Of a DNA stretch of 32,000 nt, positions 321-18,556 are shown one piece after another. Numbering within the stretch: the stretch's first letter is position 1; each line of letters begins with the position of its first letter. The DNA is from Pseudodesulfovibrio mercurii (GTDB taxonomy: Bacteria > Desulfobacterota > Desulfovibrionia > Desulfovibrionales > Desulfovibrionaceae), in NCBI RefSeq assembly GCF_000189295.2, contig NC_016803.1, positions 90,001-122,000 of the forward strand. Reading direction: 5' to 3'. Both the position numbers and the translations under genes were made by a program. The notes below the pieces were generated by a model. It had not been told where the DNA came from. It worked only from the letters and a program-made list of their open reading frames with translations, and did no database searches.

Positions 321-412
321 GGAGAGGTGGCAGAGCTCGGTTTAATGCGCTGGTCTTGAAAACCAGAGACGGGGCGACTCGTCCGGGGGTTCGAATCCCT
401 CCCTCTCCGCCA
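321..412 (+). tRNA. tRNA-Ser (anticodon UGA), class II with long variable arm, encoded CCA
   Basis: Acceptor stem GGAGAGG/CCTCTCC, discriminator G and CCA at 410-412. Anticodon stem CTGGT/ACCAG with loop CTTGAAA (anticodon TGA). Long variable arm. T-loop GGTTCGAATCC. Confidence 0.9.
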
Positions 413-1223: not shown

Positions 1224-1346
1224 ACACTTTTTTACAATTTCTGAGTATCCTTTAACCCCTCTGGACCGAAGAATACCCTATGGTGCTTGCACCAAGCGGG
1301 CGATGTCGCCCGTGAACGTACAACCGTAAGGCATTTTGGAGTCCAT

Positions 1347-2528
1347 ATGAAATGGTTATACAAGGCGGCCGCCGTTCTCGTCCTCGTCGGGCTGGGCGTG
1401 GGCGTCAAGCTGTACTTCTTTCCCGCATCGGCGCCCATGCAGTATCTGACCTCGCCCGTGACCCGGGGCGACGTCCAGGAGACGGTCCTGGCCACCGGGA
1501 CCCTGACGGCCTTCAAGCAGGTCAGCGTGGGCGCCCAGGCCTCGGGCCAGGTCAACTCCCTCAAGGTGGAGCTGGGCGACGCGGTCAAGGAGGGCGACCT
1601 CATCGCCGAGATCGACGCCCAGTCCCAGGAGAACGCCCTGCGCATCGCCGAGGCCGACCTGGAGAAGATCAAGGCCGAGCGGGCAGCCAAGGTGGCCACC
1701 CTGCAACAGGCCCAGTCCGAGTACACCCGCCAGCAGAAGATGCTCAAGTCCAAGGCCACCTCGCGCCAGGATTACGAGGACGCCCAGGCCACCCTGGCCG
1801 AGACCAGGGCGGACATCGCCTCCCTGGACGCCCAGATCGTGGCCGCGGCCATCGACGTGGACACGGCCAGGGTTGACCTCGGCTACACCAAGATCACCGC
1901 GCCCATGGACGGGGTGGTGGTGGCGGTCGTCACCAAGGAGGGCCAGACCGTGAACGCGGCCCAGTCCACGCCGACCATCGTCAAGCTGGCCCAGCTCGAC
2001 ACCATGACCGTGGAGTCCGAGGTCTCCGAGGCGGACGTGGTCCACGTCAAGCCCGGCCAGAAGGTCTATTTCACCATCCTCGGCGAGCCGGACAACAAGT
2101 ACGAGGCCACCCTGCGGAGCATCGAGCCCGCGCCTTCGTCCATCCTGACGGACGACGACGGCACGACCACCAGCTCCAGCGACGAGGCCATCTACTACAA
2201 CGCCCTGTTCGACGTGGCCAACCCGGACCACAAGCTGCGCATCTCCATGACCGCCGAGGTGACCATCGTGCTCGACGAGGCCAGGAACGTCCTGCTTATC
2301 CCCGAGAGCGCCCTGGGCGACAAGGACAAGCAGGGGCACTACTCGGTCCGAGTCCTGACCCAGGACAACCGGGCCGAGGTCCGCGGCGTGCGCACGGGGC
2401 TCTCGGATTCGGTCAACATCCAGGTCCTGGACGGCCTGACCGAGGGCGACCTGGTCATCCTGGGCGAGGCCGATGCCGACACCGTGGTCAGCCAGTCGAG
2501 CCGCCGCCACGGGCCCATGGGGTTCTAA
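1347..2528 (+). CDS. macA: MacA-type periplasmic adaptor (HlyD/RND MFP family) of a tripartite ABC efflux pump
   Basis: N-terminal TM anchor [18 protein letters not shown], then [15 protein letters not shown]...VGAQASGQV and coiled-coil, lipoyl and beta-barrel regions typical of MacA. GGAG lies 5 nt before the ATG at 1347. The stop is 3 nt before macB. Confidence 0.85.
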
Positions 2529-2530
2529 CC

Positions 2531-4474
2531 ATGCCGCTGCTGCACATCGAGAACCTGCGCAAGGAATACCCGGCGGGCGACCAGCCCATGGCCGTGCTCA
2601 AGGACGTGAACCTGAGCATCGAGGCCGGGGAGATGGTCGCCATCGTCGGGGCCTCGGGTTCGGGCAAGTCCACGCTGATGAACATCCTGGGCTGCCTGGA
2701 TTCCGCCACCAGCGGGACCTACCGCATCGCGGGCCGGGACGTGTCCGAGCTGGACGCCGACGAACTGGCGCGGCTGCGGCGCGAGCATTTCGGCTTCATC
2801 TTCCAGCGCTACCACCTGCTTTCCTCGCTGACGGCGCTGGACAACGTGGAGATGCCCGCCATCTACGAGGGCATGGCCCCGGCGGCGCGCCGGAAACGGG
2901 CGGCCGAGCTGCTCCGGCGGCTGGGCCTCGGGGACCGCATCAACTACCGGCCCGGCCAGCTTTCCGGCGGCCAGCAGCAGCGGGTGTCCATCTCGCGCGC
3001 CCTGATGAACGGCGGTCAGGTCATCCTGGCCGACGAGCCCACCGGGGCCCTGGACAGCCACAGCGGCCGCGAGACCATGAACCTTCTGACCGAACTCAAC
3101 GCCGAGGGGCACACCATCGTGGTCGTGACCCACGATATGGAGGTGGCCGCCTTCGCCCGCAGGATCATCGAGATCCGCGACGGCGAGATCATCTCGGACC
3201 GGGCCAACGAGGCCGCGCCCCCGGCCGCGCCCGCCGCGAGCCGTCCGGAGCCGGTCAAGCGCAACGCCGTGGCCTGGCTGGACCAGGCGCGCGAGCTGCT
3301 GCGCATGGCCCTGTCGGCCATGGCCGCGCACAAGCTGCGCACCTTCCTGACCATGCTCGGGATCATCATCGGCATCGCCTCGGTGGTCTCGGTGGTGGCC
3401 CTGGGCCAGGGCTCGCAGCAGCGCGTGCTGAACGACATCAGCGCCATCGGCACCAACGTCATCGACATCTTTCCGGGCGAGGACTTCGGCGACCGCCGGT
3501 CCGGGAACATCCACACCCTGGTGCCCTCGGACGCCGATGTCCTGGCCCGGCAGTCCTATGTGGACAGCGTCACGCCCAAGGTCTCCACCTCGGTGGACCT
3601 GCGCTACCGCAACGTGGACGTGGACGCCTCGGTCTCGGGCGTGAACGAACTGTACTTCCGGGTCTACGGCTACGAGATGGACCAGGGTCGGTCCTTCGAC
3701 GCCGACATGGTCCGCAAGATCGGCCAGGTGGCGGTCATCGACCAGAACACGTACAAGCGGCTGTTCAGCGCGGGCGAGCAGGTGGTGGGCAAGGTCATCA
3801 TCCTGGGAAGCGTGCCCTGCCGGATCATCGGCGTGACCAAGGCGAAGCAGACCTTCGGCCCCAACAGCGACTCCCTGAACATATGGGTGCCGTACACCAC
3901 GGCCATGCACCGCATGATCGGCCAGTCCTACCTCGGCAGCATCACCGTGCGGGTCAAGGACGGCGCGCCCATGCAGGCCGCCGAGCAGGGCATCAATCAC
4001 CTCCTGACCCGCCGGCACAAGCTCAAGGACTTCTTCATCATGAACACGGACACCATCCGCAAGACCATCGAGAGCACCACCCAGACCATGACCCTGCTCA
4101 TCTCGGCCATCGCGGTCATCTCCCTGGTGGTCGGCGGCATCGGGGTGATGAACATCATGCTCGTGTCCGTGACCGAGCGGACCCGCGAGATCGGCGTGCG
4201 CATGGCCGTGGGCGCGCGGCGCGGCGACATCATGAGCCAGTTCCTCATCGAGGCCGTGCTGGTCTGCCTGCTGGGCGGCGTCCTCGGCATCCTCCTGGCC
4301 CTGGGGGTGGGCGTGCTCGTGGCCGAAAGCGGCAGCAGCTACACCATGGTCTATTCCACGGCCTCCATGGTCCTGGCCTTTGTCTGCTCCACCCTCATCG
4401 GCGTGGCCTTCGGCTACCTCCCGGCCCGCAGCGCATCGCGCCTGGACCCGGTGGACGCCCTGGTCCGCGAATAA
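2531..4474 (+). CDS. macB: MacB-type ABC transporter, fused ATPase plus permease (FtsX-like TMD with large periplasmic domain)
   Basis: Walker [10 protein letters not shown], signature [15 protein letters not shown], Walker [13 protein letters not shown]-loop VVVTHD. Followed by four TM segments and a C-terminal FtsX-like region. 647 aa. Confidence 0.9.
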
Positions 4475-4489
4475 CAAACGGAAACATTC

Positions 4490-5875
4490 ATGCATAGATA
4501 CATCGTTTCGCTCCTGCTTCTCCTCCTGCCCCTGTCCGGTTGCGGGGCGCTGCTCAAGACCGACTTCACCCCGCCGGAGACGACCACGCCCGCGCAGTGG
4601 ACCGCGTCCGCCGCCGAGGTCTCCCCGGCCGCGACCTGGCCCACGGACTTCGGCGACCCGGCCCTGACCCGGCTGGTGGCCCTGGCCCTCGAGCGCAACA
4701 ACGACCTGGCCGCCGCGGCCATCAAGGTGCGCAAGGCCCAGTACCAGGCCGGACTGGCCTGGGAGGACATGACCCCGAACCTGTCCGCCTCCCTGGGCAC
4801 GGACAGCGAAAAGTCCCTCAAGCGGGGCGGCTGGGACACGGATTATTCCGCCAAGTTCGGCATCAGCTGGGAGGCCGACCTGTGGGGCAGGCTCTCCAGC
4901 GCGCGCGACTCGGCCGAGTGGGAGGCCCTGGCCACGGAGCAGGACCGCCAGGGCACGGCCCTGTCCCTGGTGGGCACGACCATGAAGCTCTACTGGGGCA
5001 TCGCCTACGACAACGTGCGGTTGCAACTCAGCGAGAGCAACATCGAGTCGTCCCGGCAGACCCTGGCCCTGACCGAGTCCCAGGAGCGGTGGGGCGCGGC
5101 CTCGTCCCTGGAGGTCAACCAGAGCCGCCAGGACCTGGCCAGCCTGCTGGCCACCAACCAGACCCTGCGCCAGGCGCGCCAGGAGGACATCAACGCCCTG
5201 GCCGTGCTTTTCGACATGCCGCCGGGCAAGACCATGGCCGACCCGGAGACCCTGTCCATGGCCGCGCTTCCGCCCATCCCGGCGGGACTGCCCGCCCAGC
5301 TCCTGGGCCGCCGCCCGGACCTGCGCGCGGCCGAGCTGCGGCTGCGCGAGTACCTGGCCGACACGGACGCGGCCAAGGCCGACTTCTATCCCCCCCTGAC
5401 CCTGACCGGCTCGCTGGGCAGCGCCAGCACCGAGCTGTCCGACCTGCTGAACAACCCCGTGGCCGCCCTGGTCTCCAGCCTGACCTTTCCGTTCCTCAAC
5501 TGGAACACCCTGCAGCTGCAGCTCAAGGTCTCCCAGGCCGACTTCGACGAGGCCGTGGTCAACTTCCGCCAGACCCTGTACGAGGCCATGAAGGAAGTCG
5601 AGGACGCCCTGTCCAACCGCGACCGCCTGGCCGAGCGGGCCAACCATCTGGCCGAGAATCTGACCGCCGCCCGCGAGGTGGAGCGGATCTACGAGGTCCG
5701 TTACAAGGCTGGCTCCGGAACTCTCAAGGACTGGCTGGACGCCCAGGACACCCGGCGCATCGCCGAGCAGTCCGCGGCCGAGAACCTGTACAGCCGGCTG
5801 ACCAACTACGTGACCCTGTACCAGGCCCTGGGCGGCGAGCCGCCCCGGACGGAGACCGTGGCCCAGACCAAATGA
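4490..5875 (+). CDS. Outer-membrane efflux lipoprotein, NodT/OMF (TolC-like) family
   Basis: Lipoprotein signal with lipobox [11 protein letters not shown]. Two OEP repeats (RPDL, YKAG... motifs). Completes the macAB operon. Confidence 0.85.
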
Positions 5876-5972: not shown

Positions 5973-6671
5973 CTAGCGCGAGTAGCGTTCCTCCTTCCAG
6001 GGGTCGGCGGAGTTGCTGTAGCCGCGCTTTTCCCAGTAGCCGCGTTCGTCGCGGGCGACGATCTTGATCCCTTCCACCCACTTGGCGCTCTTGTAGAAGT
6101 AGCGGTCCGGGACCACCCCGCGCACCGGGCCGCCGTTGGGGCCGGGCAGGGGCGCGCCGAACAGGCTGTGGGCCAGGAACACGTCCGGCTTGCTGGCTTC
6201 GGTCAGCGGGATGCTCGTGGTGTAGCCGTGGGCGGCCTGGAAGACGACGAACCGGGCGTCCGCCGTGGGTTGCGCGCGGTCGAGGATGGTGGAGAGCGAC
6301 ACGCCGCGCCAGGCGGCGTCCAGGAGGGTCCAGCCGGTCACACAGTGGACGTCGCAGGTGAAGTCCTGCTGGCCGAGGTCCATGAGCCCCTGGAAATCGA
6401 GTTCAAGCGGGGTCGCGACCTCGCCTTGGACGCGCAGGGCGAAGTCCTCGGGCCGGGGCGAGCCGGGCCTGCCGCCCATGTCCTCGATGCGTTCGATCAC
6501 GGTCTGGCCCGGCGGGACGCGGGGGCGTCCGTCGGGCCGGAGCAGTCCGGCCAGTTCCGCCTGCCGGGCCTCGGCCACCGTGGCGAACAGGCCGGGCAGA
6601 CCTATGGCGACCACGGTTCCGGCGGCCACGGACAGGAACTCGCGCCGGGACAATCGGGCTTTCTCGTTCAT
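5973..6671 (-). CDS. Tat-exported sulfite-oxidase-fold molybdopterin-binding oxidoreductase (short YedY/MsrP-like form, 232 aa)
   Basis: Start [18 protein letters not shown] (twin-arginine motif) with AGGAGG upstream of the ATG at 6671. Conserved Mo-ligand region [12 protein letters not shown]. The track ORF extends to 6896 but that extension has no RBS and no plausible sequence. Confidence 0.8.
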
Positions 6672-6772: not shown

Positions 6773-8629
6773 CTAGTTGGCCAGCCCCTTCAGGCTCGGG
6801 CCGAGCAGGGTCTCCACCTGCTTGGGGCCGAGGTCCATGCGGTAGAACAGCTTGTAGAACTCCCTGGTCTCCCGGATCATGTCCCAGCCGAACCACTCGG
6901 GGTAGAGCAGGTTGGTCAGCCAGATCAGCCCCATGAGCCGGTTCACGGACGGCGGCCGGTCGAACCAGTGGTACATGCCCGCCGGAGGCTCGAACACGGC
7001 CTGGTTGCGCACGGCCTTGAGCCGGGACCAGAAGGGATCGGTCCGGATTCGGTTGTACAGCCGTTGCGGAGACTTGCCTTCGTCCGAGAGCATGACGACC
7101 ACGTCCGGGTCCCAGCGGGCCAGGTCCGTGGCGCAGACCGGGGTGCGGCCGCAGCCGCGCTGCTCGTGCACCTCGGCCACGTTCACTCCGCCCGCGTATT
7201 CGATGAGCTCGCCGTGGCGGGAGCGCCGGGGCTCGGTGAGCAGGCCGGTGGGGGACTGGGCGTAGTAGACCGTGCGCCGCTCGCCCAGGGGGATGCCCGC
7301 CACGGTCCGGACGATCCGGTGGAATTTCTCCTCGAAATAGTCGGCCAGGAGGTTGCCCCGGTCGGGCACGCCGAGGAGCGCGCCCACGCGCCGCAGGACC
7401 TCGCCGGTGCGGTCCAGGCCCCCGTCGTAGACGAGCACCGGGATGCCCAGCTCCTGTTGCAGCCGGTCGGCCTGGGCCACCTCGACCTCGTCCAGGGCGA
7501 ACAGGGTCAGGGAGAGGATCAGGTCCACGCCGCGCTGTCCGACGGCCTCCCTGTCCAGGGTGGTCTTGCCGCCGCCGAAGTTGCCGCCCATGACCCCGAG
7601 GACCGGCAGGGAGAGGTATTCCGGGCTCGCCAGCATGCGCTCGGGCGGCATGGGGGGCATGCCCAGCCCCGCGATCCTGTCCGGGGCCAGGGCGAAGAGC
7701 AGGGCCGTGACCATGGGGTTGTAGCCGAAGACCCGCTTGAGTTCCGTCCTGACCAGGACCTTGCGCCCGGCCATGTCCGTGGCCAGGGTCGTCTCGGGCA
7801 GGTGCACGGGCTTGAATTCCACCATACTCACCTCGTTGGTTGCCGGTATGCCGGTTGGTTCGGGGGGCGTCGGGGCGTCCCCGTGGTTGCCGAAGGCCGC
7901 CCGCACGGGCGGGGCGGCCAGGAGTTCGGCGGTGGTCCGTCGGACGAAGTCCGCGTCCCGGTCCGCCGGGGACCGGTCGATGGCCTGGTCGTGGACCACG
8001 CGGCCGGGGGACGGGGCCAGGATGACCACGCGGTGGCTCAGGCGGACCGCCTCGGCCGGGTCGTGGGTCACGAACACGGCGGCCAGGCCGCGCTCCTCCA
8101 TGAGGGACCGGACCAGGTCCTGGAGTTCGCGCCTGAGGCCCACGTCCAGGGCGCTGAACGGTTCATCCAGGAGGAGCAGGTCCGGCTCCACGGCCAGGGC
8201 TCTGGCCAGGGAGACCCGCTGGCGCATGCCGCCGCTCAGTTCATGGGGAAATTTCGCCAGGTCGCCGGGGTTCAGGCCCATGCGCCCGGCCAGCCGCCGG
8301 GCCCGGTCCAGGCGGTCCGCCCTGGGCACGCCCAGGGCCTTGAGCCCGAAGGCGATGTTGTCCACGGTGCGACGCCAGGGAAGCAGCCTCGGCTCCTGGA
8401 AGACGCAGGCCGTGTGCGCGAAGGTGTTGACCACCCGCCCCCGGCCGGGCGCGAGCAGTCCGGCGGCCATGTGCAGCAGGGAGGTCTTGCCGCAGCCCGA
8501 GCGGCCCGCCAGGGCCAGGACCTCGCCGGGCAGCACGCGCAGGCTGACGTCGGCCAGCACCGGCCCGTCGCCGTAGTCGTGGTGGACGTGCTCCCAGGCC
8601 AGCACGGGACCGTCTTGCGTGGCGGTCAT
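6773..8629 (-). CDS. NitT/TauT-type ABC ATPase fused in frame, via a Pro-rich linker, to a signal-less Peripla_BP_2 (BtuF/FecB-like) binding-protein domain (618 aa)
   Basis: The N-terminal ~250 aa carry Walker [11 protein letters not shown]-loop FQEPRLLPW, signature [15 protein letters not shown], Walker [13 protein letters not shown] and H-loop VFVTHD. Linker: [24 protein letters not shown]. The C-terminal ~350 aa ([25 protein letters not shown]..., WDPDVVVML...) look like a class III periplasmic binding protein. No stop codon separates the two parts. ATGA overlap with the upstream permease gene. Confidence 0.75.
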
Positions 8630-9414
8630 GATGACCGGACCGTGCGGCGCCAGGGCTCCAGGCGCCGTTGCAGGGGGTCGAGCAGGAGCAGGTCCACGGC
8701 CAGGAGCATGGCCAGCAGGACGATGATCCAGGCAAGGACGTCGGCGGTCTCCAGGTTGACCCGGGCCAGGGCCAGGTCCGCGCCGATGCCGTCGGTGGAG
8801 GCCAGCAGCTCGGCCATGACCGCCACCTTCCAGGACAATCCCAGGGCCGTGACCCAGCCGGGGAAGAGGTAGGACAGGATGTGCGGCAGCCGCACGTCCA
8901 GGAAGAGCATGGCCGGGGGCGTGTCGAAGGAGCGGCCCATGTCCTCGAGCCCTCGGTCGCGGGTGCGCGCGCCCTCCACGGCCACGGCGAAGACGATGGG
9001 CAGGGCGGTGACCACCACGGTGAACACCGGGGTCAGGCCGGTGGTGCCGAACCAGAGCATGGCCAGGACGATCCAGGCGATGGGCGGGATGCCCAGGAGC
9101 ATGGCCGTGATGGGCCGGAGGGTCCGGGCCAGGGCGGGGTGGAGTCCGGCCAGGATGCCGACGGTGCTGCCGAGCACGGCGGCCACGGCGAAGCCGCCCA
9201 GGGCGCGCCCGGCCGTGACCAGGGCCGCCTTGCCCACCGCGCCCTCCAGGGTCAGCCGCCAGAGCGCCCGGCAGGCCTCAAGGGGCGAAGGAAGGATGAA
9301 CGGGCCGTAGCACAGGCTGCCGACCCACCACAGGGCGAGGAAGAGCGCCACGCCCAGGGCGGGGTAGCGCAGGTCCCGCAGGGCGGACCGGACCGTGCTC
9401 GCGGCGCGGGACAT
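8626..9414 (-). CDS. ABC transporter permease, NitT/TauT (SsuC/TauC-like) family
   Basis: 262 aa with ~6 TM segments and BPD_transp_1-type features. GGGAGG upstream of the ATG at 9414. Confidence 0.85.
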   Translation of the reverse strand: MSRAASTVRSALRDLRYPALGVALFLALWWVGSLCYGPFILPSPLEACRALWRLTLEGAVGKAALVTAGRALGGFAVAAVLGSTVGILAGLHPALARTLRPITAMLLGIPPIAWIVLAMLWFGTTGLTPVFTVVVTALPIVFAVAVEGARTRDRGLEDMGRSFDTPPAMLFLDVRLPHILSYLFPGWVTALGLSWKVAVMAELLASTDGIGADLALARVNLETADVLAWIIVLLAMLLAVDLLLLDPLQRRLEPWRRTVRSS

Positions 9415-9429: not shown

Positions 9430-10407
9430 CTAGCCCAGGTAGAAGGCGTCGTCCGGCAGCTTGCCGCCCGTCAGTTTGGGCGACAGCTCCATCAGGGCCT
9501 TGTAGTAAAATTCCAGGTCCTTGCGGGCCTCGGCGGCGGGGAGACGCCGGATGGGGAAGGTCTCCAGGGATTTTTGCAGGACCGGGGCCTTGAGCCCGAA
9601 GAAGTCGGCGGACTGTTGGGCGGCCTCGGCCGGGTGGGCGTTGATCCAGTCCACGGCCTGGCCGATGCCGGTCCGGAGCGCGGCCACGGTCTGCGGTTCC
9701 TTCTCCGCCATGGAGGCCTGGCAGATGGTCCCGCCCAGGGGCAGGAACAGGGTGTTGCCGGTGACCTTTTCCCAGACGTCCTGGAGCACGATGCGGTGCA
9801 GCTCCATGCCGGACGCCTTGGCCTTGAGCACGGCCGCCATGGCCGCCGGCTCGGGCAGCAGGACCGTGTCCGCGCGCTTGGACAGAAGCATCTGCAACGC
9901 CTCGAATGGCGAGTCCGCGTAGGAAACGGTCATGTCCGCGTCCGGGTCGATGCCCTGCTTCGCGGCCAGGTAGCGGACGATGGTGTCCGGGATGTCCCCC
10001 CGGTAGAAGAGCAGGACCTTCTTGCCCTTGATGTCCGTGAAATCCTTGACGGACGGATCGCGGGTCAGGAGGCTGAGGATGCCGCCGTTGTTGACGTCCA
10101 GGAGGCGGACCGGCAGCCCTTTGTTGTACAGGATGGCGGCGGCGTTGGCCGGGGCGGCCGAGACCTGGGCCTCGCCCGAGACCATCCAGGCGCGCATGAT
10201 GTCCGGGTTGCGCCACTGCTTCATCTCCATTGCGGGCAGCCCGGCCGGGGACTGTTGGGCCAGGCGGACCAGGGGGAGGCTCAGGGGCGCGGGCGGGCCG
10301 GACAGGACCAGCTTTTCCGGTGCGGCCAGGACCCGGTGGGCGGACAGGAAGGGGAACAGGGCCAGGGCCCCGGCGCTCATGGAGAGAAAATGCCTGCGTG
10401 TGATCAT
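9430..10407 (-). CDS. NMT1/SsuA-like ABC substrate-binding protein with twin-arginine signal
   Basis: Start MITRRHFLSMSAGALALFPFLSAHRVLA at the ATG at 10407 (AAGGAAG upstream). The body resembles SsuA/NMT1 binding proteins. First gene of the minus-strand ABC operon. Confidence 0.8.
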   Translation of the reverse strand: MITRRHFLSMSAGALALFPFLSAHRVLAAPEKLVLSGPPAPLSLPLVRLAQQSPAGLPAMEMKQWRNPDIMRAWMVSGEAQVSAAPANAAAILYNKGLPVRLLDVNNGGILSLLTRDPSVKDFTDIKGKKVLLFYRGDIPDTIVRYLAAKQGIDPDADMTVSYADSPFEALQMLLSKRADTVLLPEPAAMAAVLKAKASGMELHRIVLQDVWEKVTGNTLFLPLGGTICQASMAEKEPQTVAALRTGIGQAVDWINAHPAEAAQQSADFFGLKAPVLQKSLETFPIRRLPAAEARKDLEFYYKALMELSPKLTGGKLPDDAFYLG

Positions 10408-10637: not shown

Positions 10638-12032
10638 CTATTTCCTGTTGCGCCGGATGCCCGCCAGGGAGAGATGGCGGTAGATGCTCGGCACGCTCAG
10701 GCCCGACAACCGGCTGGCCTCGGGGATGTCGAAGTCGCAGATGTCCATGAGCTGGCGGAAGTAGGCCTGGTCGCGCAACGCCTTGTAGTCGTTGTAGGCC
10801 TGGATGGGGCCGTCCGTGGCCTGGTTCGGCTGGGGCCGGGCCGGGGCGCGCTTGGGCTTGGCCCGGTCCAGGGAGGAGACGCGGATGTGGCCGGGCAGGT
10901 GCTTGGGATAGATGACCGGCTCCTGTCCGGCGGCGATGACCGCCGCCTCCATGACGTTGCCCAGTTCGCGGACGTTGCCGGGCCATGTGTAGGGGTGCAG
11001 GACGCGGGCCAGCTGCTTGGAGAACTGCTTGGGGGGCAGGCGGTAGCGTTCGCAGGCCGACTTGGCGAAGTGGCGGGCCAGGAGGATGACGTCCTGGTCG
11101 CGCTCGCGCAGGGGCGGCAGGGAGATTTCCAGGGTGCGCAGCCGGAAGAGCAGGTCCGAGCGGAAGGTCCCGGTCCGGGTCATGGCCTCCAGGTCGCGGT
11201 TGGTGGCGGCCATGAGCCGGAAGTCGCTGGCCTGTTCGCGGGAGGAGCCCACGGGCCGGAAGCGGTGCTCCTGGAGCACGCGCAGGAAGGACTTCTGCAG
11301 GGAGGGCGGCAGCTCGCCGATCTCGTCCAGGAACAGGGTGCCGCCGTCGGCCTCGGCCACCAGCCCCCGGTGGTCGGTCATGGCCCCGGTGAAGGCCCCC
11401 TTGACGTGGCCGTAGAGCACGCTTTCGAGCAGGGTCTCGGTCAGGTTGGAGCAGTCCACGACCACGAAGGGCTTGTCGCGGCGGGCGCTGTTGCGGTGGA
11501 TGGCCTGGGCGGCCAGCTCCTTGCCCGCCCCGGTCTCGCCGAGGATGAGCACCCCGGCCTCGCTCTCGGCGGCCTTGGCCATGAGCTGTCGGACCCGGTC
11601 CATGGCCGGGGATTTGCCGATGATCCCGCCGTCGTCGAAGGTTCGGGCCGGTTGCTGGGCCGCGAACTTGTCGCTGCGGTACTTGAGGGCGCTCTCCAGG
11701 GACGCCTTGAGGACCGAGGGCGTGGCCGGTTTTTGGATGTAGTCCCAGGCCCCGCTGGTCAGGGTCTCCTGGGCCCCGAAGTTGTCCTTCAGGCCGGTCA
11801 GGACGATGACCTCGGGCCCGCCGGGCGCGGCGGACAGCTCGTTGATGGACATGTGTCCGTCGCCGTCGGGCAGGTTCAGGTCCAGGTAGATGACGTCCAC
11901 GCCGCTGCGCGCCCGGACCAGCCCCCGGCTCAGGCTGTCGGCGGTCAGGATCTCGTGGCCGAGGTCGCCGAAGCAGCGGGACAGGCCGCTTCGGATGAGC
12001 TCGTCGTCGTCGATGATCAGTATGCGTGCCAT
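10638..12032 (-). CDS. Sigma-54-dependent response regulator (NtrC family: REC, AAA+ and Fis-type HTH domains)
   Basis: REC domain MARILIIDDDE...DVIYLDLNLPDGDG. AAA+ Walker A GETGAGKE. A GAFTGA loop in the sequence HVKGAFTGAM. ESxLFGH-like motif. C-terminal HTH EASRLSGLSVPSIYRHL. Confidence 0.9.
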   Translation of the reverse strand: MARILIIDDDELIRSGLSRCFGDLGHEILTADSLSRGLVRARSGVDVIYLDLNLPDGDGHMSINELSAAPGGPEVIVLTGLKDNFGAQETLTSGAWDYIQKPATPSVLKASLESALKYRSDKFAAQQPARTFDDGGIIGKSPAMDRVRQLMAKAAESEAGVLILGETGAGKELAAQAIHRNSARRDKPFVVVDCSNLTETLLESVLYGHVKGAFTGAMTDHRGLVAEADGGTLFLDEIGELPPSLQKSFLRVLQEHRFRPVGSSREQASDFRLMAATNRDLEAMTRTGTFRSDLLFRLRTLEISLPPLRERDQDVILLARHFAKSACERYRLPPKQFSKQLARVLHPYTWPGNVRELGNVMEAAVIAAGQEPVIYPKHLPGHIRVSSLDRAKPKRAPARPQPNQATDGPIQAYNDYKALRDQAYFRQLMDICDFDIPEASRLSGLSVPSIYRHLSLAGIRRNRK

Positions 12033-12039
12033 GGTCGTC

Positions 12040-13926
12040 CTACATGCGGAACTTGTTGACGTTTTCCACCAGCGTCCGGGGCGACATGGGCTTCATGACG
12101 AAGCCCGCCACCCCGGTGAGCCGGGCCTGGGCCTCCAGCCGGGCCTCCACGTGGCCGGTGCAGATGACCACCTTGGCGTCCGGAGCGTGTTCCAGGACGC
12201 GGGCGGCCATCTCCATGCCGGTCATGCCGGGCATGGACTGGTCCGTGACCACCAGGTCGAACCGCCCCTTGCCCCGGAAAAATTCCTTGAGACCCTCCTG
12301 TCCGCTGGAGGCCGTGAAGACCTCGTAGCCCGCGTCGCGCAGGACGCGCTGCATGGCCTGGAGGGCCCCGGCGTCGTCGTCCACCAGGAGCAGGCGGCCC
12401 GTTGACCGGGCGGCCGGGCGGGTTTCGCGGGCCAGGGTCTTGGTCTCCGGGGTGGCGGTGCAGGGCAGGTAGACCGTGAAGGTGGTCCCCCGGCCCGGCA
12501 CGGAGTCCACGTGGATGGTCCCGCCGTTGCAGGTCACGATGGCGTGGACCACGGCCAGCCCCATGCCCGTGCCGCCGCTCTTGCTCTTGCTCGTGTAGAA
12601 GGGCTCGAAGATGCGCTCCGCCGAGCCCGGCTCTATGCCGTGGCCCGTGTCCGACACGGTCAGGACCACGTGGTCGCCCAGGGCCAGGCCCGAGTGCGGG
12701 GCTTCCTTCTGCGAGTCCAGGTGCAGGTTGGACAGACGCACGGACAGGGTGCCGCCGCCGGGCATGGCCTGGACGGCGTTGCGGCAGAGGTTGAGCAGAA
12801 CCTGCTGGACCTGGGAGGGGTTGGCCAGGACGCAGTCGTTGTCCGCCGAGCAGTCCATGTCCAGGCGCACGTGGTCGGGCAGGGTGCCCTGCAGGATGGC
12901 CAGGTTCTCGCGGGCCAGGGGGGTCAGGTGCAGGGGCGAGCGGCTGACCTCCTGCTGGCGGCTGTACTCCAGGACCTGTTCGACCAGTTCCGAGGCCTTG
13001 TACGCGGCGCGCAGGGCCTCGGCCAGGGGGGCCTCCATGGGCGTGTTGTCCGCCTTGCCCAGGGCGTAGTCTACATTGAAGATGATCGGGACCAGGTTGT
13101 TGTTCAGGTCGTGGGCGATGCCGCCCGCAAGCACGCCGATGGCCCGCATCTTCTGGGCCTGGAACAGCTCCCGCTCCACCCGCTTCAGCTCGGTGATGTC
13201 CACCCCCAGCTCCATGACCAGGGGCTCCCCGTTCTCGTCCTCGAAGGGATAGTCGTAGATGTGGAAGGTCCGGCCCGCGTCGTCGGTGAACTGCCAGTCC
13301 ACGGGCTCGCCCGTGTCGAAGACCCGGAAGGTAGGGCAGTGGGGACAGGGGTCGTCGCGGCCGCCGAACATCTGGTAGCAGCGCCGCCCGCCCACCTCGC
13401 CGTAGAAGGCCAGGGTCTTCTTGTTGGCGTAGGCCACGGAGTAGTCGCGCCGCTGCATGTAGACGAACACGGGCAGCTCGTTGACCACGTCGAAGAAGAG
13501 CAGCCGGCCGCGCTCGCGGAGCATGTCCGACTGCCGCCGGAGGACCTTTTCGTCGCGCAGGGCCGCGCGCAGCCGCTCCACCTCGGCGTGGCGGTGGACC
13601 TCGACCACGATCTCGCCGCCGGGCAGGGGCACCAGGCGGCAGGAGGCCAGCTCCCGGTCCGGGGCCGACGGGTCGCCCATCTCCACCAACTGCTCCATGC
13701 CGGTCAGGGCCACCTGGGCCAGGCCGTCCTCGAGGACCCGCAGGAACCGGGCGTGGAAGGGCAGCTCGTCCGGCCGCCGCCCCTCTGGAAAGGGTGCGTC
13801 CGCCGGGAGCAGCCGGGTGAAGGCGTTGTTGGCATAGGCGATGACCCCGTCCGGGCCGAGCACGGCCATGGGGGTCGGGCTCTGCCGGGCGAAGAGCCGG
13901 AGATCGGAAGGTGCGGGTATCTGCAT
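12040..13926 (-). CDS. PAS-domain hybrid sensor histidine kinase (PAS-PAS-HisKA-HATPase-REC), cytoplasmic
   Basis: H-box GGIAHDLNNNL. N, G1 and G2 boxes (NLCRNAVQAM, DTGHGI, GGTGMGL). C-terminal receiver LLLVDDD...DLVVTDQSMPGMTG. No TM segments. The stop is 8 nt before the regulator gene. The start at 13926 has a weak RBS. Confidence 0.85.
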   Translation of the reverse strand: MQIPAPSDLRLFARQSPTPMAVLGPDGVIAYANNAFTRLLPADAPFPEGRRPDELPFHARFLRVLEDGLAQVALTGMEQLVEMGDPSAPDRELASCRLVPLPGGEIVVEVHRHAEVERLRAALRDEKVLRRQSDMLRERGRLLFFDVVNELPVFVYMQRRDYSVAYANKKTLAFYGEVGGRRCYQMFGGRDDPCPHCPTFRVFDTGEPVDWQFTDDAGRTFHIYDYPFEDENGEPLVMELGVDITELKRVERELFQAQKMRAIGVLAGGIAHDLNNNLVPIIFNVDYALGKADNTPMEAPLAEALRAAYKASELVEQVLEYSRQQEVSRSPLHLTPLARENLAILQGTLPDHVRLDMDCSADNDCVLANPSQVQQVLLNLCRNAVQAMPGGGTLSVRLSNLHLDSQKEAPHSGLALGDHVVLTVSDTGHGIEPGSAERIFEPFYTSKSKSGGTGMGLAVVHAIVTCNGGTIHVDSVPGRGTTFTVYLPCTATPETKTLARETRPAARSTGRLLLVDDDAGALQAMQRVLRDAGYEVFTASSGQEGLKEFFRGKGRFDLVVTDQSMPGMTGMEMAARVLEHAPDAKVVICTGHVEARLEAQARLTGVAGFVMKPMSPRTLVENVNKFRM

Positions 13927-14195: not shown

Positions 14196-14211
14196 TGGCA
14201 CGGCGATTGTA
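14196..14211 (+). promoter_or_regulatory. Sigma-54 (RpoN) -24/-12 promoter for the GS-like gene cluster
   Basis: TGGCACGGCGATTGTA versus consensus TGGCACG-N4-TTGCW: correct spacing, and only the -12 C is replaced by T. It sits 90 nt upstream of the ATG at 14301, next to a divergent sigma-54 activator gene. Confidence 0.6.
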
Positions 14212-14300: not shown

Positions 14301-15677
14301 ATGAGCCTGCCAAAACCATCTTCCATCGACAGCATCAAGAAGCAGATCCGGGATCATGACATCCAGTTCGTCCGTTTCGAGCAAGCGGACCTGTACGGCG
14401 TGTCCCGGAGCAAGACCGTGCCGGTCGGCGCGTTCATGGACTATATAGAGAACGGCCTGAACTTTTACGGCGGACTGCTCGGCCTGGACATCCAGTCCAT
14501 GGTCCCCAAGGGGACCGGGTACGCCGAGGAGGTGGCCTTCGAGGACCATTGCACGGTGCCGGACCTGTCCACCTTCACGGTCCTGCCCTGGGTGCCCAAC
14601 ACGGCCAACATCACCGTGGACCCCTACTGGTACGACGGCCGCCCGGCCATGGCCTCCCCGCGCCTGCTGCTCAAGAAGATCCTCGATGAGTTCGCCGCCA
14701 TGGGCTACATCTGCCGGTTGGGCTACGAGTTCGAGTTCTACGTGCTGGACAAGGAGACCAGGAAGCCGGTCTACGACGGACAGCCCATCTTCGTCACCCT
14801 CAAGAACAACTTCGACATCGACTATACCTACGACCTGATGCGCAAGATGGACCAGGCCGGGGTGCGGATCATCACCCAGAACTCCGAGCACGGGCCGGGA
14901 CAGCAGGAGATCAACCTGTACTACCAGGACGGCCTGCCCGCCGCGGACACCGCCTTCCTCTACAAGATGGGCTGCAAGGAGATTTCCCTGCAGCACGGCT
15001 ACATCGCCACCTGGCTGACCAAGCCGTTCATCAATTCCAGCGCCTCGGGCTCCCACTTCCACGTCTCCCTCATCGACAAGAAGACCGGCAAGAACGCCTT
15101 CAACGCCCCGGACGGCGAGTGCGGCCTGTCCGAGCTGGCGCGCGACTTCCTGGCGGGCATGCTCAAGCACGCCCGGGCCAACACCGTGTTCACCGCCCCG
15201 ACCATCAACTGCTATAAGCGCTACCGGGTCAATTCCTTCGCCCCGCACACCGCCACCTGGGGCATGGAGAACCGCACCGTGGGCATCCGCCTGAAGGGCT
15301 GCCGGGGCGAGTCCACCCATTTCGAGAACCGGCTGGCCTGCGGCGGGACCAACCCCTACCTTCTGGCCCTGTCCACCCTGGCCGCCGGCCTTGAGGGCAT
15401 CCGTTCCAAGCCGGAGTTGCCCGATCCGGTCCTGGGCATCGCCTACGACGATGAAACCCTGCCCAGGCTGCCGTTCACCCTGGACGAGGCCGTGGAGGCC
15501 TTCGAGCAGGACACGGACCTGCATGCCGTGCTCGACCCCGAGTTCATCAAGCTGGTCCTGGCCGTGAAGAAGTTCGAGGTCGAGACCGCCAGGGCCAAGT
15601 TCGCGGACTACGGTACCCCCGAATTCAACAATCGCGTCGATCCATGGGAGTGGGACTACTACATGGAACTGCTGTAG
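14301..15677 (+). CDS. Glutamine-synthetase-family gamma-glutamyl ligase (type I GS-like; PuuA/GmaS/IpuC-like)
   Basis: 458 aa with GS motifs NSEHGPGQQEINL, SGSHFHVSL, NCYKRY, WGMENRTVGIRL and the N-terminal beta-grasp region DIQFVRFEQADLYGVSR. Confidence 0.9.
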   Translation: MSLPKPSSIDSIKKQIRDHDIQFVRFEQADLYGVSRSKTVPVGAFMDYIENGLNFYGGLLGLDIQSMVPKGTGYAEEVAFEDHCTVPDLSTFTVLPWVPNTANITVDPYWYDGRPAMASPRLLLKKILDEFAAMGYICRLGYEFEFYVLDKETRKPVYDGQPIFVTLKNNFDIDYTYDLMRKMDQAGVRIITQNSEHGPGQQEINLYYQDGLPAADTAFLYKMGCKEISLQHGYIATWLTKPFINSSASGSHFHVSLIDKKTGKNAFNAPDGECGLSELARDFLAGMLKHARANTVFTAPTINCYKRYRVNSFAPHTATWGMENRTVGIRLKGCRGESTHFENRLACGGTNPYLLALSTLAAGLEGIRSKPELPDPVLGIAYDDETLPRLPFTLDEAVEAFEQDTDLHAVLDPEFIKLVLAVKKFEVETARAKFADYGTPEFNNRVDPWEWDYYMELL

Positions 15678-15765
15678 ACACCGCACCTCCCAACCCGGGG
15701 AGGGGGGCCTTCCTTCATCCTCCCTCCCCGTGCGGTGTTTTCGAACAGGAGCAACCGGAGCAACA

Positions 15766-16863
15766 ATGAGCACCATTCCCGTCATAGAACTGACCGGCAC
15801 CCCCTTCGAACGGGGCGTCGCCCACGGCCGGGCCCTCGGGGACCTGATCGCGGAGTTCGTGGAGTCCGTGACCTCGGTCCACCAGATGAACAACGGGTTC
15901 ATCCGCGTGGACAAGGACCGGCTCGAAACCTTTTGCATGAAGAATCTCGGCTTCCTCGAAAAGTTCTCCCCCGAGCTGGTGGAGGAGATGCGCGGCATCG
16001 CTGAGGGCGCGGGCGTGACCTTCAAGGAGATTCTCTACCTCAACTCCTTCCTGGAGCTGGAGGACCTGCGTGCGCCCGGCATCGGCGGCACGGTCCTGCC
16101 CGACGGCCTGTGGGGCTGCACCACCTTCAACGTCACCCGCGACGCCGGGGAGGGCGGCCGGGCCTACATCGGCCAGACCTACGACATGGAGAAATACTAC
16201 GAGAGGTTTCTCTGCCTGCTGCGCATCGTTCCGGAACAGGGCCCGGCCCAGCTGGTCATCTCGTTCGCGGGCATCCTCGGCCTGGTCGGCCTGAACGCGG
16301 CGGGCGTGGGCGCGGTCATCAACAAGGTCACGGCCACGGACGCCCGGCCCGGCGTGGTCTACCCGTTCATCATGCGCAGGGCGCTATCCAGCGAGCGCAT
16401 CGGCGACGCGCTGGGCGCGGCCATCTTCTCGCCGCGCGCGGGGGGCATCAACTACCAGTTCGCGGGAAGCGGGGTGGCCTTCTGCGCCGAGACCTCGGCC
16501 GCGTACTACCAGCTCCTCGACATCGACGGGTCCATCGCCCACACCAACCACTTCGTGGGCCGGGACATGCGCCGGTTCGAGACCCCCAACTGGCTGTCCC
16601 ACGGCGGGTCCATGGTGCGCAAGCAGGTGGCCGACAACTTCCTGAAGCGCCATCGCGGCGCCCTCAACCCCGAGAAGCTCAAGGAGCTGACCAGGGACCA
16701 CACCAATTATCCCCGGTGCATCTGCGCCCACGGGTTCCCCGGCGAGGACCCGAAGACGGCCTTCCACACGGTCTTCGCCGTGATCATGGACCCCGAGGCG
16801 GGGTGGCTGGAGCTGTGTTCCGGCAATCCCTGCGAGAATACCTACGAGCGCCACGTCCTCTGA
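15766..16863 (+). CDS. Peptidase C45 / acyl-CoA:6-aminopenicillanic acid acyltransferase-like Ntn hydrolase
   Basis: Start MSTIPVIELTGTPFERGVAHG with GGAG 5 nt upstream. Candidate autoprocessing and nucleophile site G-CTTF (Cys118, nt 16117-16119), as in the G/CTT site of the AAT family. Confidence 0.8.
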   Translation: MSTIPVIELTGTPFERGVAHGRALGDLIAEFVESVTSVHQMNNGFIRVDKDRLETFCMKNLGFLEKFSPELVEEMRGIAEGAGVTFKEILYLNSFLELEDLRAPGIGGTVLPDGLWGCTTFNVTRDAGEGGRAYIGQTYDMEKYYERFLCLLRIVPEQGPAQLVISFAGILGLVGLNAAGVGAVINKVTATDARPGVVYPFIMRRALSSERIGDALGAAIFSPRAGGINYQFAGSGVAFCAETSAAYYQLLDIDGSIAHTNHFVGRDMRRFETPNWLSHGGSMVRKQVADNFLKRHRGALNPEKLKELTRDHTNYPRCICAHGFPGEDPKTAFHTVFAVIMDPEAGWLELCSGNPCENTYERHVL

Positions 16864-16935
16864 CGCGGCGGTGAATCGGCTGATGTTCGGTAGCTGGCAA
16901 GCATTTTCAACATATTAAGCAAGCAGAGGTGTGCA

Positions 16936-18501
16936 ATGGAAACGAATGCGAAGTTGGAGAAGACCCTGAAAGAGTATGAGTCCGGCGGCATGACCCGCCG
17001 CTCGTTCCTCAAGACCATGACCACCCTGGGCGTGGCCGCGGCCGTGGCCAACGCCGTGGCCCTGTCGCCGCTGGGCGCGGTCAAGGCGTTCGCCGCCATC
17101 TCCGGTCCCGAGGAGCGCGCCTGGGCCCTGGCCAAGGTGGCTGCGGCCAAGGCCACGAAGAAGACCCTGACCCTGCTCATTCCCACCGGGTCCATCGGCA
17201 ACATGACCCCGTATGCCGACAAGTGGAAGAACGAACTCGGCATCACCCTGGAGTTCATCGAGGAGCCGGACGAGGTCGTCCACACCAAGGGCATGCAGGA
17301 GGCCGTGGCCAAGACCGGCCGGTACGACGTCATGATGCCCACGGCCATGTCCTATCCGGACTGGATCGACTCCGGCGTCATCTACGACCTGACCGACTGG
17401 ACCGAGAAGTACGACCCCGAGCTGTTCAACAAGGAATGGGGCGTGGTCTTCCCGGCCTCGCACCATGCCCAGCTGTACAACGGCCGCGTGGCCGGTCTGC
17501 TCAACGACGGCGACCAGATCACCCTGCTGTGCCGCAAGGACTACCTTGAGGATTCCGACAAGGCCAAGGCCTTCGAGGACAAGTTCGGCCGCAAGCTGGC
17601 CGTGCCCGACACCTGGAAGGAGTACTACGACCTGGCCTCCTTCATGCATGATCCGGCCAAGGGCTTCTACGGTTCCCTGGAATACCGCTCCCCGTACTAC
17701 GTCAAGTGGATGTTTATGCAGCGCCTCGTGTCCAAGGGCATGCTCTACTTCGACGGCGAGATGAACCCGACCTTCAATTCCGACGAAGGCGTGGCCGCCC
17801 TGGAAGACATGCTGGCCATGAACCAGTTCCTGCACCCGGACGCCTTCTCCTTCACCTGGTCCTCCAACTACAACGCCTTCGGCCGGGGCGAGGGCTTCAT
17901 GAACATCGTCTGGCCGTCCGGCTTCAAGTACTCCATGGCCCCGTCCACCGGCCCGGCCACCACCGGCAAGATCGCGGCCACCGTCATGCCCGCCGACTTC
18001 ACCAAGGACGGCACCAAGCTGTACGCGGGCATGTTCTGCTGGGGCTACGGCTACGCGGTCTCCAAGTATTCCGCCAACCCCGAGCTGGCCTACGCCTACT
18101 CCCAGTGGATGACCTCGCCGACCATCTCGGCCGACGCCATCCCGTACCTCGGCGGCTACTCCGACCCGTATCGCGTCAACCACATGCTCGAACCCACCAA
18201 GCGGCTGGTGGACACCTACACCAAGCCGTACCTGAACACCCTGTACAACAACATGGTCAACACCGTGCCCGACTTCTGCCTGCCCGGCGGCTTCGAGTAC
18301 CAGGACGCCCTGGACAAGGAGGTGCACGCCTGCATGACCGGTTCCAAGAAGCCCAAGGAGGCCCTGGAACAGGCCGCGCACAAGTTCGAGCGCATCACCC
18401 GCCGCATCGGCAAGGACAAGGTCAAGAAGGCCTGGATCGCCCTGACCTCCAACCTGGCCGCGCCCATCAAGAAGGCCGCGGGCGTGGACAACTGGAGCTA
18501 G
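16936..18501 (+). CDS. ABC substrate-binding protein, family 1 (sugar/polyamine type), twin-arginine signal
   Basis: GAGGTG RBS before the ATG at 16936. Tat-like motif GGMTRRSFLKTMTTLGVAAAVANA. 521 aa, long for SBP_bac_1. Followed by the cognate permeases. Confidence 0.85.
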   Translation: METNAKLEKTLKEYESGGMTRRSFLKTMTTLGVAAAVANAVALSPLGAVKAFAAISGPEERAWALAKVAAAKATKKTLTLLIPTGSIGNMTPYADKWKNELGITLEFIEEPDEVVHTKGMQEAVAKTGRYDVMMPTAMSYPDWIDSGVIYDLTDWTEKYDPELFNKEWGVVFPASHHAQLYNGRVAGLLNDGDQITLLCRKDYLEDSDKAKAFEDKFGRKLAVPDTWKEYYDLASFMHDPAKGFYGSLEYRSPYYVKWMFMQRLVSKGMLYFDGEMNPTFNSDEGVAALEDMLAMNQFLHPDAFSFTWSSNYNAFGRGEGFMNIVWPSGFKYSMAPSTGPATTGKIAATVMPADFTKDGTKLYAGMFCWGYGYAVSKYSANPELAYAYSQWMTSPTISADAIPYLGGYSDPYRVNHMLEPTKRLVDTYTKPYLNTLYNNMVNTVPDFCLPGGFEYQDALDKEVHACMTGSKKPKEALEQAAHKFERITRRIGKDKVKKAWIALTSNLAAPIKKAAGVDNWS

Positions 18502-18556
18502 AACGAGACTCCCAACAACCGAACCCGGCCCGGGGGCCATTCCCCGGGCCGGTCAG

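Follow-up and report, generated by a model that had tools for sequence, protein, structure and literature searches.

What might a binding-protein domain do when it is joined to the ATPase of an importer and kept inside the cell? This question is raised by a gene at positions 6773-8629 on the minus strand of a 32,000-nucleotide stretch of the Pseudodesulfovibrio mercurii genome (contig NC_016803.1, positions 90,001 to 122,000), which we refer to as the window and by whose numbering positions are given unless another locus is named. The gene encodes, in this order, an ATP-binding cassette (ABC) ATPase, a linker, and a binding-protein domain of class III that has no export signal; a preliminary description of the window had pointed to this combination. 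Having followed it up computationally, we hold with high confidence that the fusion is real and selectively maintained, and that it is rare yet conserved. The role that we favor for the domain, with a probability of about 0.4, is that of an intracellular ligand sensor that may gate the ATPase.

The fusion gene and its conservation

The gene is a single unbroken open reading frame (ORF) of 618 amino acids (aa), whose ATG forms an ATGA overlap with the stop codon of the upstream permease gene. Within the protein, Pfam recognized ABC_tran (PF00005) at aa 25-158 (2.7e-26) and Peripla_BP_2 (PF01497) at aa 384-547 (3.1e-11; 43.6 bits vs. a cut-off of 27.5). When 5.8 billion proteins were searched, the same single-ORF fusion was found in about 25 orthologous protein clusters of 605-626 aa and 62-86% identity, with both Pfam domains. 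Their hosts are Pseudodesulfovibrio, Maridesulfovibrio, Desulfovibrio inopinatus, and other Desulfovibrionaceae, and they include isolates, closed genomes, and metagenome-assembled genomes (MAGs). Since clusters from isolates and complete genomes carry this same single-ORF fusion, an assembly artefact can be excluded. The uninterrupted frame reported in the preliminary description is open in the orthologues too, with no stop codon between the domains. A cassette of three genes, for an NMT1-type binding protein, a permease, and the fusion protein, is intact in 11 species-level genomes.

Pairwise ratios of nonsynonymous to synonymous substitution (dN/dS) were computed by gene section between the window gene and eight orthologues. 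Values were 0.15-0.29 for the binding-protein domain and 0.18-0.45 for the ATPase, so the former is under purifying selection and is constrained at least as strongly as the latter.

The ATPase half (aa 1-250, positions 7880-8629, minus strand) is a TauB/SsuB-like nucleotide-binding domain (NBD). In NCBIfam the N-terminus matched TauB best (2e-52), with SsuB at 2.2e-45, and its score stayed below every equivalog cut-off (178 bits vs. 357). All five catalytic motifs are intact, i.e. Walker A (GRSGCGKT at residue 42), the Q-loop (VFQ at 76), the LSGGM signature (at 131), Walker B (LLLLDE at 151), and the H-loop (VTHD at 187). A Foldseek search with the full model matched the NBD to NrtD and CmpD, from the cryo-electron microscopy structures of NrtBCD and CmpBCD, and to other NBDs. 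Its genetic neighbors, a permease of the BPD_transp_1 family and a binding protein of NMT1/SsuA type, place this TauB/SsuB-nearest domain in a NitT/TauT-type importer, and the complete NBD of that type announced in the preliminary description is indeed present. None of the Pfam profiles TOBE, TOBE_2, NIL, and OB_MalK matched in the fusion protein; TOBE_2/OB_MalK were detected in two other ATPases within the window.

Between the two domains lies a Pro/Ala-rich linker (aa 251-273, positions 7811-7879, minus strand), as had been described. The full-length AlphaFold2 model (predicted template modelling score, pTM, 0.61) consists of two confident domains with this segment between them at a predicted local distance difference test score (pLDDT) below 50 (residues 251-254 and 256-273). 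The sequence and length of the linker differ among orthologues, and its dN/dS is 0.7-1.0; the linker therefore behaves as a nearly neutral, flexible tether.

The binding-protein domain and its signal-less relatives

The C-terminal domain (aa 274-618, positions 6776-7810, minus strand) is a complete class III binding protein, and the earlier assignment of a Peripla_BP_2-like domain of about 350 aa is upheld by profile, PDB, and fold searches alike. PDB entry 4pag, an exported protein of Sulfurospirillum, aligned with residues 16-339 of the 350-aa C-terminal part (4.6e-32), so that homology to binding proteins spans the whole C-terminal 330 aa, far beyond the Pfam stretch. Modelled alone, this part reached a pLDDT of 90.4 and a pTM of 0.90, and Foldseek superposed it on 4pag with template modelling (TM) scores of 0.83/0.89. 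Further neighbors in fold were all of class III, namely 4ovk (Veillonella), 4hn9, MolA (TM 0.68/0.73), TM0189, YiuA, and haem binders. In the model the lobes are joined by a long helix at residues 154-176, in the two-lobe arrangement of class III. A match to NMT1 was not found by Pfam in aa 274-618.

An exhaustive, profile-free scan of 1.84 billion representative proteins yielded 2978 relatives of the domain, with a top group of only four 50%-identity clusters (725, 504, 446, and 394 bits), after which scores dropped to about 307 and 230. This top group comprises three architectures of the signal-less form. In type a (Desulfovibrionaceae) the domain sits on a TauB-type ATPase, as in the window. 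In type b (Deferribacterales, Seleniivibrio) a domain 63% identical to that of the window is fused to an ATPase that is nearest to haem, FepC, and BtuD ATPases and only 28% identical to the ATPase of the window, and the fusion gene is flanked by those of a FecCD permease and of a paralogue with a signal peptide. Type c (Desulfuromonas) is a free protein of 349-353 aa, 58-60% identical, which starts with MSDTGTTPPAGTRLVTDMAGRK and has no signal peptide. Its gene comes directly after that of an ATPase in a cluster with the order TonB receptor, periplasmic paralogue, ExbBD-TonB, FecCD, ATPase. The periplasmic paralogue in type b and c operons is 40-43% identical to the signal-less domain in Deferribacterales/Seleniivibrio, and about 30% in Desulfuromonas.

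Export signals are the rule elsewhere in the family. An evident hydrophobic leader was seen in 226 of the 255 relatives inspected, and lipoboxes and Tat (twin-arginine translocation) motifs are also among the export signals outside the signal-less clade. Most of the other 25, whose N-termini are of low hydrophobicity, turned out to be fragmentary, to carry Tat signals, or to stem from truncated gene calls (one or two, P0259 and P0354, are uncertain), and the Desulfuromonas stand-alone proteins were the only clearly complete and signal-less ones among the 255. In a neighbor-joining tree of 73 sequences, with bootstrap supports out of 200, the signal-less clade was recovered with 200, type a with 192, type b with 187, type c with 200, and a plus b with 188. 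Its sister group is formed by the periplasmic paralogues from the Deferribacterales operons, and types a and b have a common N-terminal segment, E..M.E.KP....PET.L. By its placement in the tree, the signal-less clade is derived, monophyletic, and nested among exported binding proteins. In the simplest history the exported binding protein of a FecCD-type importer, of the metal-chelate/haem type, would have been duplicated and one copy would have lost its leader (type c); this free form would have fused to the adjacent ATPase (type b), and the domain would then have been transferred to a TauB-type ATPase (type a).

Three other proteins among those encountered have unusual layouts of their own. 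P0123 (768 aa) and P0160 (964 aa) are exported relatives in which a single polypeptide with a signal peptide holds two or three Peripla_BP_2 domains in tandem, so that domains have been multiplied in another way within this subfamily. In P0107 (595 aa), a TauB-like ATPase 45% identical to that of the window is joined to an SsuA/NMT1-type domain via a segment resembling a Tat signal or hydrophobic anchor, WTRRGALLGAAAATAGLVAF; what it represents is a wrongly joined gene call or else a fusion of an ATPase and a binding protein that spans the membrane.

The residues of the domain bear both on where it resides and on whether it still binds a ligand. Motifs that it has in common with exported relatives are TDMAGR, YYA..GL.TEP, and WFDRPPS. 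Across eight aligned members of the clade, from three phyla and all three architectures, 130 positions are invariant, 25 of which hold residues that are rare (10% or less) in exported relatives. The latter have Glu at positions 93 and 233 of the C-terminal domain in 93 of 93 cases and Gln at position 234 in 91 of 93, within the motifs N.E.(I/L)...PD and S.EQ(L/V)..WNPD. As in BtuF-BtuCD, these motifs carry the two glutamates, one on each lobe, by which a class III binding protein docks to its FecCD-type permease. Seven of the eight clade members have Asp at position 233, and the window has Thr (Thr501); Asp or Glu is found at position 234, and Glu, Asp, or Lys at position 93, in the N-lobe, the window keeping Glu361. 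Such a change of the glutamate would be expected if the domain no longer docks at the periplasmic face of the permease. Every clade member has Cys at position 225 (Cys493), a residue that never occurs there outside the clade; of the 75 outside relatives with a residue at this position, 39 have Tyr, the most frequent one. Tyr303 is invariant within the clade and absent outside it, and the cleft-side His472 is kept family-wide (87/93). The ligand site thus looks remodelled yet not abandoned.

As the preliminary description had stated, the fused domain has no signal peptide or lipobox; across all 618 aa we found neither a signal peptide nor a transmembrane helix, the maximum hydropathy over 19 aa being 1.4. 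The cytoplasmic location that it had proposed is strengthened by the signal-less free-standing orthologue, by the signals of the exported relatives, and by the loss of a glutamate that is present in 93 of 93 of them. Judged from these features, the domain very likely resides in the cytoplasm.

An internal start codon had been suggested as a means of separate expression. It consists of the Shine-Dalgarno (SD)-like GAGGTG (7829-7834) and an ATG (7823-7825, Met269) on the minus strand, together 7823-7834. Met269 lies 14-15 aa before the TDMAGR motif, in the same place as the start of the stand-alone type c protein, and is the ancestral start codon of the free-standing form. An SD-like GGAG, GAGG, or AGGA was present 5-16 nt upstream of the internal ATG in 11 of 13 genomic loci, type b included, compared with 17 of 253 (6.7%) other in-frame internal ATGs of the same genes, where it should be noted that the 13 loci are related and not independent, and that the peptide around the Met is itself conserved. 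The motif is encoded by differing residue pairs (EV, EE, QE). This pattern is suggestive of an SD and ATG kept as a second translation start, in support of the earlier suggestion. The TDMAGR motif could be located in 25 fused clusters. Four of these have no internal Met (P0008 has Lys, and P0023-25 have none there), and because of these four separate expression of the domain is likely to be common yet dispensable.

Possible roles of the fused domain

According to the view that we favor, the two domains tethered to the ATPase homodimer would bind a small intracellular ligand in the cleft between their lobes. This ligand is probably a metal chelate, a tetrapyrrole, or a rare-metal species, and not the substrate of the NMT1-type transporter. 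Its presence or absence would switch the domains between holding the ATPase dimer open and releasing it, and import would thereby be coupled to the cytoplasmic pool of the ligand, paralleling the C-terminal domains of NrtC and CmpC. The internal start codon would probably also give some free 38-kDa domain. We favor a sensor because there is precedent for it in the same transporter family, because the window pairs the domain with a foreign class of transporter, and because the cassette comes without hand-off partners, i.e. without a periplasmic paralogue or a radical S-adenosylmethionine (radical-SAM) enzyme. That the fused domain differs in class from the cognate binding protein fits cross-sensing better than hand-off.

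As to the ligand, the nearest characterized folds bind molybdate/tungstate (MolA) or iron-catecholate (YiuA), and the TonB receptor and ATPase of Desulfuromonas resemble those of haem systems, but only below curated cut-offs. Hints of molybdenum or tungsten are weak (the similarity to MolA, and DUF364 and Mod-like neighbors of the radical-SAM family described below), and none of them reach the cassette of the window. No cobalamin or other riboswitch was found in the window or in seven related loci, and since none was found a corrinoid is weakly disfavored.

A number of observations weigh against a ligand-sensing regulator. The neighbors of the domain in the PDB point to no single ligand, being by sequence and by fold a mixture of unliganded structural-genomics entries, MolA, YiuA, and haem binders; the two closest structures (4pag and 4ovk) carry no assigned ligand. 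The full-length model contains no confident contact between the domains. The linker is long, disordered, and near-neutral, whereas known trans-inhibition domains sit close after the NBD, and NrtC and CmpC act asymmetrically with a second, domain-less ATPase, whereas there is one ATPase gene here. An ancestral free form and a seemingly kept internal start fit a diffusible carrier better than a regulator in cis. Finally, types b and c stand beside a radical-SAM enzyme with a Peripla_BP_2-like domain of its own, which suggests that a ligand is handed over.

These last observations lead to the main rival explanation, which we regard as possible though doubtful, namely that the domain is a cytoplasmic acceptor or chaperone that, in tethered and in free form, would capture an incoming metal chelate, perhaps a scarce or reactive one, at the cytoplasmic exit of the importer and pass it to downstream enzymes, as a counterpart of the periplasmic binding protein. 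In Desulfuromonas the free signal-less protein is encoded between the ATPase gene and, directly after it, the gene of a 617-aa radical-SAM enzyme with a Peripla_BP_2-like C-terminus. Seleniivibrio-type loci have a gene of the same enzyme family next to the fused form, and across types b and c the enzyme measures 590-617 aa. The operons of types b and c also hold the periplasmic paralogue, which could allow the same ligand to be bound in the periplasm and in the cytoplasm. The flexible, near-neutral tether and the conserved internal SD and ATG would suit an acceptor, and the use of two unrelated ATPase classes (28% identity between the ATPases vs. 63% between the domains) suggests that proximity was selected and not an allosteric interface. 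In addition, a signal-less fusion of MoeA and a binding protein has been proposed to channel a solute (PMC11733289). On the other hand, the type a importer is of another class and has neither a radical-SAM neighbor nor a periplasmic paralogue within about 8 kb, so that substrate and ligand need not match; the site looks remodelled relative to the periplasmic paralogues; and no experimental precedent is known for an acceptor with a binding-protein fold on the cytoplasmic face of an ABC importer. Sensor and acceptor functions are not mutually exclusive.

The radical-SAM family has features of its own. It comprises more than 500 clusters at E<=1e-30, of about 590-630 aa, whose members unite a radical-SAM domain of the AmmeMemoRadiSam-like kind and a zinc ribbon with a Peripla_BP_2-like domain at the C-terminus, which is another cytoplasmic use of this fold. 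Its hosts include Desulfobacterales, Desulfosarcina, Desulfobacter, Syntrophobacteraceae, Desulfoscipio, and Moorella, and its neighbors include FecCD importers with the same binding-protein subfamily, DUF364/DUF4213 proteins, UbiE-like methyltransferases, CobW, and Mod/Tup-like transporters. Members are found, in the numbering of each locus, in L001 (9350-11203, plus strand), L016 (4187-5956, minus strand), L028 (7035-8816, minus strand), L021 (1040-2812, plus strand), L030 (8001-9809), and L031 (8001-9863). In the Desulfuromonas locus L001 the radical-SAM gene is followed by genes for a regulator with helix-turn-helix and PBP_like (PF12727) domains (11295-12413) and for a UbiE-like methyltransferase (12776-13405). 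On a Firmicute-type contig (L004, 1-5567), Fur is encoded upstream of a lipoprotein relative, after which come a 335-aa radical-SAM protein, a 373-aa protein that matches no family, and a protein with an FmdE domain. A literature search on radical-SAM::Peripla_BP_2 proteins returned nothing on the family.

A more far-reaching form of the acceptor idea, which is unlikely, is a two-sided relay in anaerobes. In it, the cargo would move from the periplasmic binding protein through the FecCD- or TauT-type importer to the ATPase-tethered (and free) cytoplasmic domain, and from there to the radical-SAM::Peripla_BP_2-like enzyme, and a metal chelate would never be free in the cytosol. If this were true, the domain would be the first acceptor with a binding-protein fold on the trans side of an ABC importer, and if the acceptor model holds, capture on the trans side would be a new step in the ABC import cycle.

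The remaining explanations fare worse. An improbable one is that the free 38-kDa protein is the functional species and that the fusion, which arose by loss of a stop codon, is just a device for co-expression or stoichiometry. A stand-alone form does exist, the linker is unconstrained, and the ancestral Met start usually keeps its SD-like motif. Nevertheless, both ATPase contexts have retained the fusion, in more than one phylum, and a return to two genes is not seen among the roughly 28 fused clusters; in the four of 25 clusters without the internal Met the fusion is the sole product. We give slightly less credence still to a ligand-independent scaffold (a dimerization or docking module) or a decaying relic. 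The changes at positions conserved in exported relatives could be read in this way, as could the fact that no ligand can be inferred, but the dN/dS of the domain is equal to or below that of the ATPase, its invariant positions include the family-wide His and the newly fixed Cys and Tyr, and the model is a confident, complete two-lobe fold. That a frameshift or mis-assembly joined two genes, or that the domain is actually exported, is hardly credible even though the two parts are separate genes in one lineage (Desulfuromonas). The frame is open in isolates of independent origin as well as in complete genomes and MAGs, the separate-gene form also lacks a signal peptide, and the 618 aa contain no hydrophobic segment.

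Neighboring genes and known systems

The genes here are all on the minus strand, in the order NMT1 binding protein, permease, fusion gene, and then a molybdopterin oxidoreductase. The permease (8626-9414; BPD_transp_1, Pfam 1.7e-19) is SsuC/SaoP-like, is translationally coupled to the fusion gene through the ATGA overlap, and adjoins the fusion in all type a loci. The exported binding protein (9430-10407) is of the NMT1/SsuA class (Pfam NMT1, 4.8e-10) and carries the Tat motif MITRRHFL, in agreement with the Tat-signal binding protein of a different class in the preliminary description. It too is kept in all type a loci, and its fold class is unrelated to that of the fused domain. There is one ATPase gene per cassette, in the window and in all type a loci, and beyond the three cassette genes no conserved neighbors were found in these loci.

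The molybdopterin oxidoreductase gene (5973-6671) lies 101 nt after the fusion gene and encodes a Tat-exported, sulfite-oxidase/MsrP-like enzyme (Oxidored_molyb, 5.6e-37), near which no MsrQ-like partner was noticed. It was rejected as a part of the system because L006 and L007, the two nearest relatives, are alone in having it downstream; it is absent in L005, L026, and L027. A histidine kinase/sigma-54 regulator pair precedes the cassette in one genome only, and no sigma-54 -24/-12 element with two or fewer mismatches was found upstream of the ABC operon. The only good element of this kind, the near-consensus TGGCACGGCGATTGT at 14196-14210 (plus strand), faces a divergent cluster at 14301-22582 (plus strand). 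In this cluster are genes for a glutamine-synthetase-like protein and a homologue of AAT-family acyltransferases, as well as for an SBP_bac_1 binding protein, a permease, and two ATPases resembling MalK. It may be this cluster, rather than the ABC operon, that is controlled by the adjacent hybrid kinase and sigma-54 activator (10638-13926, minus strand).

Among the other features of the window, a tRNA gene at 321-409 (plus strand), which Rfam recognized at 58 bits, and an operon at 1287-5875 (plus strand) for tripartite efflux of the MacA/MacB/TolC-like kind (HlyD, ABC-FtsX, OEP) are upstream of the studied region. At 23551-26235 (plus strand), an 894-aa ORF unites a molybdopterin oxidoreductase (Fe4S4, Molybdopterin, Molydop_binding) with a C-terminal class-I glutamine amidotransferase (aa 696-834), which is an unusual pairing.

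Our literature search for the architecture of an ATPase with a class III binding protein, or for cytoplasmic class III binding proteins, returned no description. The closest known systems are NrtC and CmpC, NitT/TauT-family ATPases with a C-terminal binding-protein-like regulatory domain (CRD). The CRD of NrtC is about 30% identical to NrtA, and the CRD binds nitrate. In the NRT system it recruits PII, and in the Cmp system it locks the two ATPases until intracellular nitrate frees them; the CRD of CmpC thus senses nitrate, whereas bicarbonate is transported (PMC10945777, PMC13287603). The fusion protein of the window likewise has an ATPase of this family with a C-terminal, signal-less, two-lobe domain in the cytoplasm, and in Deferribacterales the fused domain and the periplasmic binding protein of the same operon are paralogues, as in NrtC. 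The differences are that the domain of the window belongs to class III (Peripla_BP_2), whereas those of NrtC and CmpC are of the NrtA/NMT1-type class II without any sequence relationship to it; that it is unrelated to its cognate binding protein; that one ATPase gene gives two domains per transporter, whereas NrtC/NrtD has one; and that its linker is long and disordered, whereas theirs is a hinge helix.

The preliminary description had drawn its comparison with MetN, ModC, and MalK, whose trans-inhibition domains are summarized in the same two papers (PMC10945777, PMC13287603). MetN (C2/NIL), ModC (TOBE), and MalK also have a C-terminal ATPase extension that could bind a cytoplasmic ligand and hold the NBD dimer apart. 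Their extensions are, however, small and beta-rich (about 100-130 aa), in contrast to a 345-aa binding-protein fold on a flexible tether, and the closer precedent of NrtC and CmpC had been missed, so that the architecture is less novel than was implied. The regulation of an importer by a signal-less binding-protein domain on its ATPase is already established, and it is a nearer analogue than MetN, ModC, and MalK provide.

Exported proteins such as 4pag, 4ovk, MolA/HI1472, and YiuA have the same fold over the full length, with common motifs. Unlike these class III proteins, the domain of the window has no export signal, has the Glu-Gln of the C-lobe replaced and the Tyr changed to Cys493, and is fused to an ATPase. 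A cytoplasmic sensor with a related domain is Btr of Bacillus subtilis, an AraC-type regulator with a C-terminal FeuA-like siderophore-binding domain (PMC3333878). Its Peripla_BP_2-type domain was recruited as a cytoplasmic sensor for FecCD-type uptake, a precedent for reading the domain of the window as a sensor, but the output is transcription via a DNA-binding domain, and Btr has no specific kinship with the signal-less clade. In the archaeal MoeA-PBP (MoeA1), a signal-less binding-protein-like domain is fused to a cytoplasmic protein, and the role proposed for it is the capture and channelling of a metal oxyanion (PMC11733289). MoeA-PBP differs in having a ModA-like class of binding protein and an enzyme of molybdenum cofactor insertion as partner, and its function is predicted only.

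What is new here is the class III fold, its mismatch with the binding protein of the operon, and its fusion to two unrelated ATPase families with a free form in addition. The family is rare and specialized, and either a sensor or an acceptor would point to an unstudied pathway of metal-chelate handling in sulfate- and metal-reducing anaerobes. Free, on a cognate transporter, and on a foreign transporter, the domain provides a natural series for studying how cytoplasmic sensing arises in importers. Altogether, ABC-importer ATPases with a binding-protein-like C-terminal domain were previously known only from the cyanobacterial Nrt and Cmp systems, in which they connect the uptake of carbon with that of nitrogen; here the design had a separate origin, in the BtuF/FhuD/MolA-type class, and moved between two unrelated ATPase families, and its free cytoplasmic intermediate is extant.

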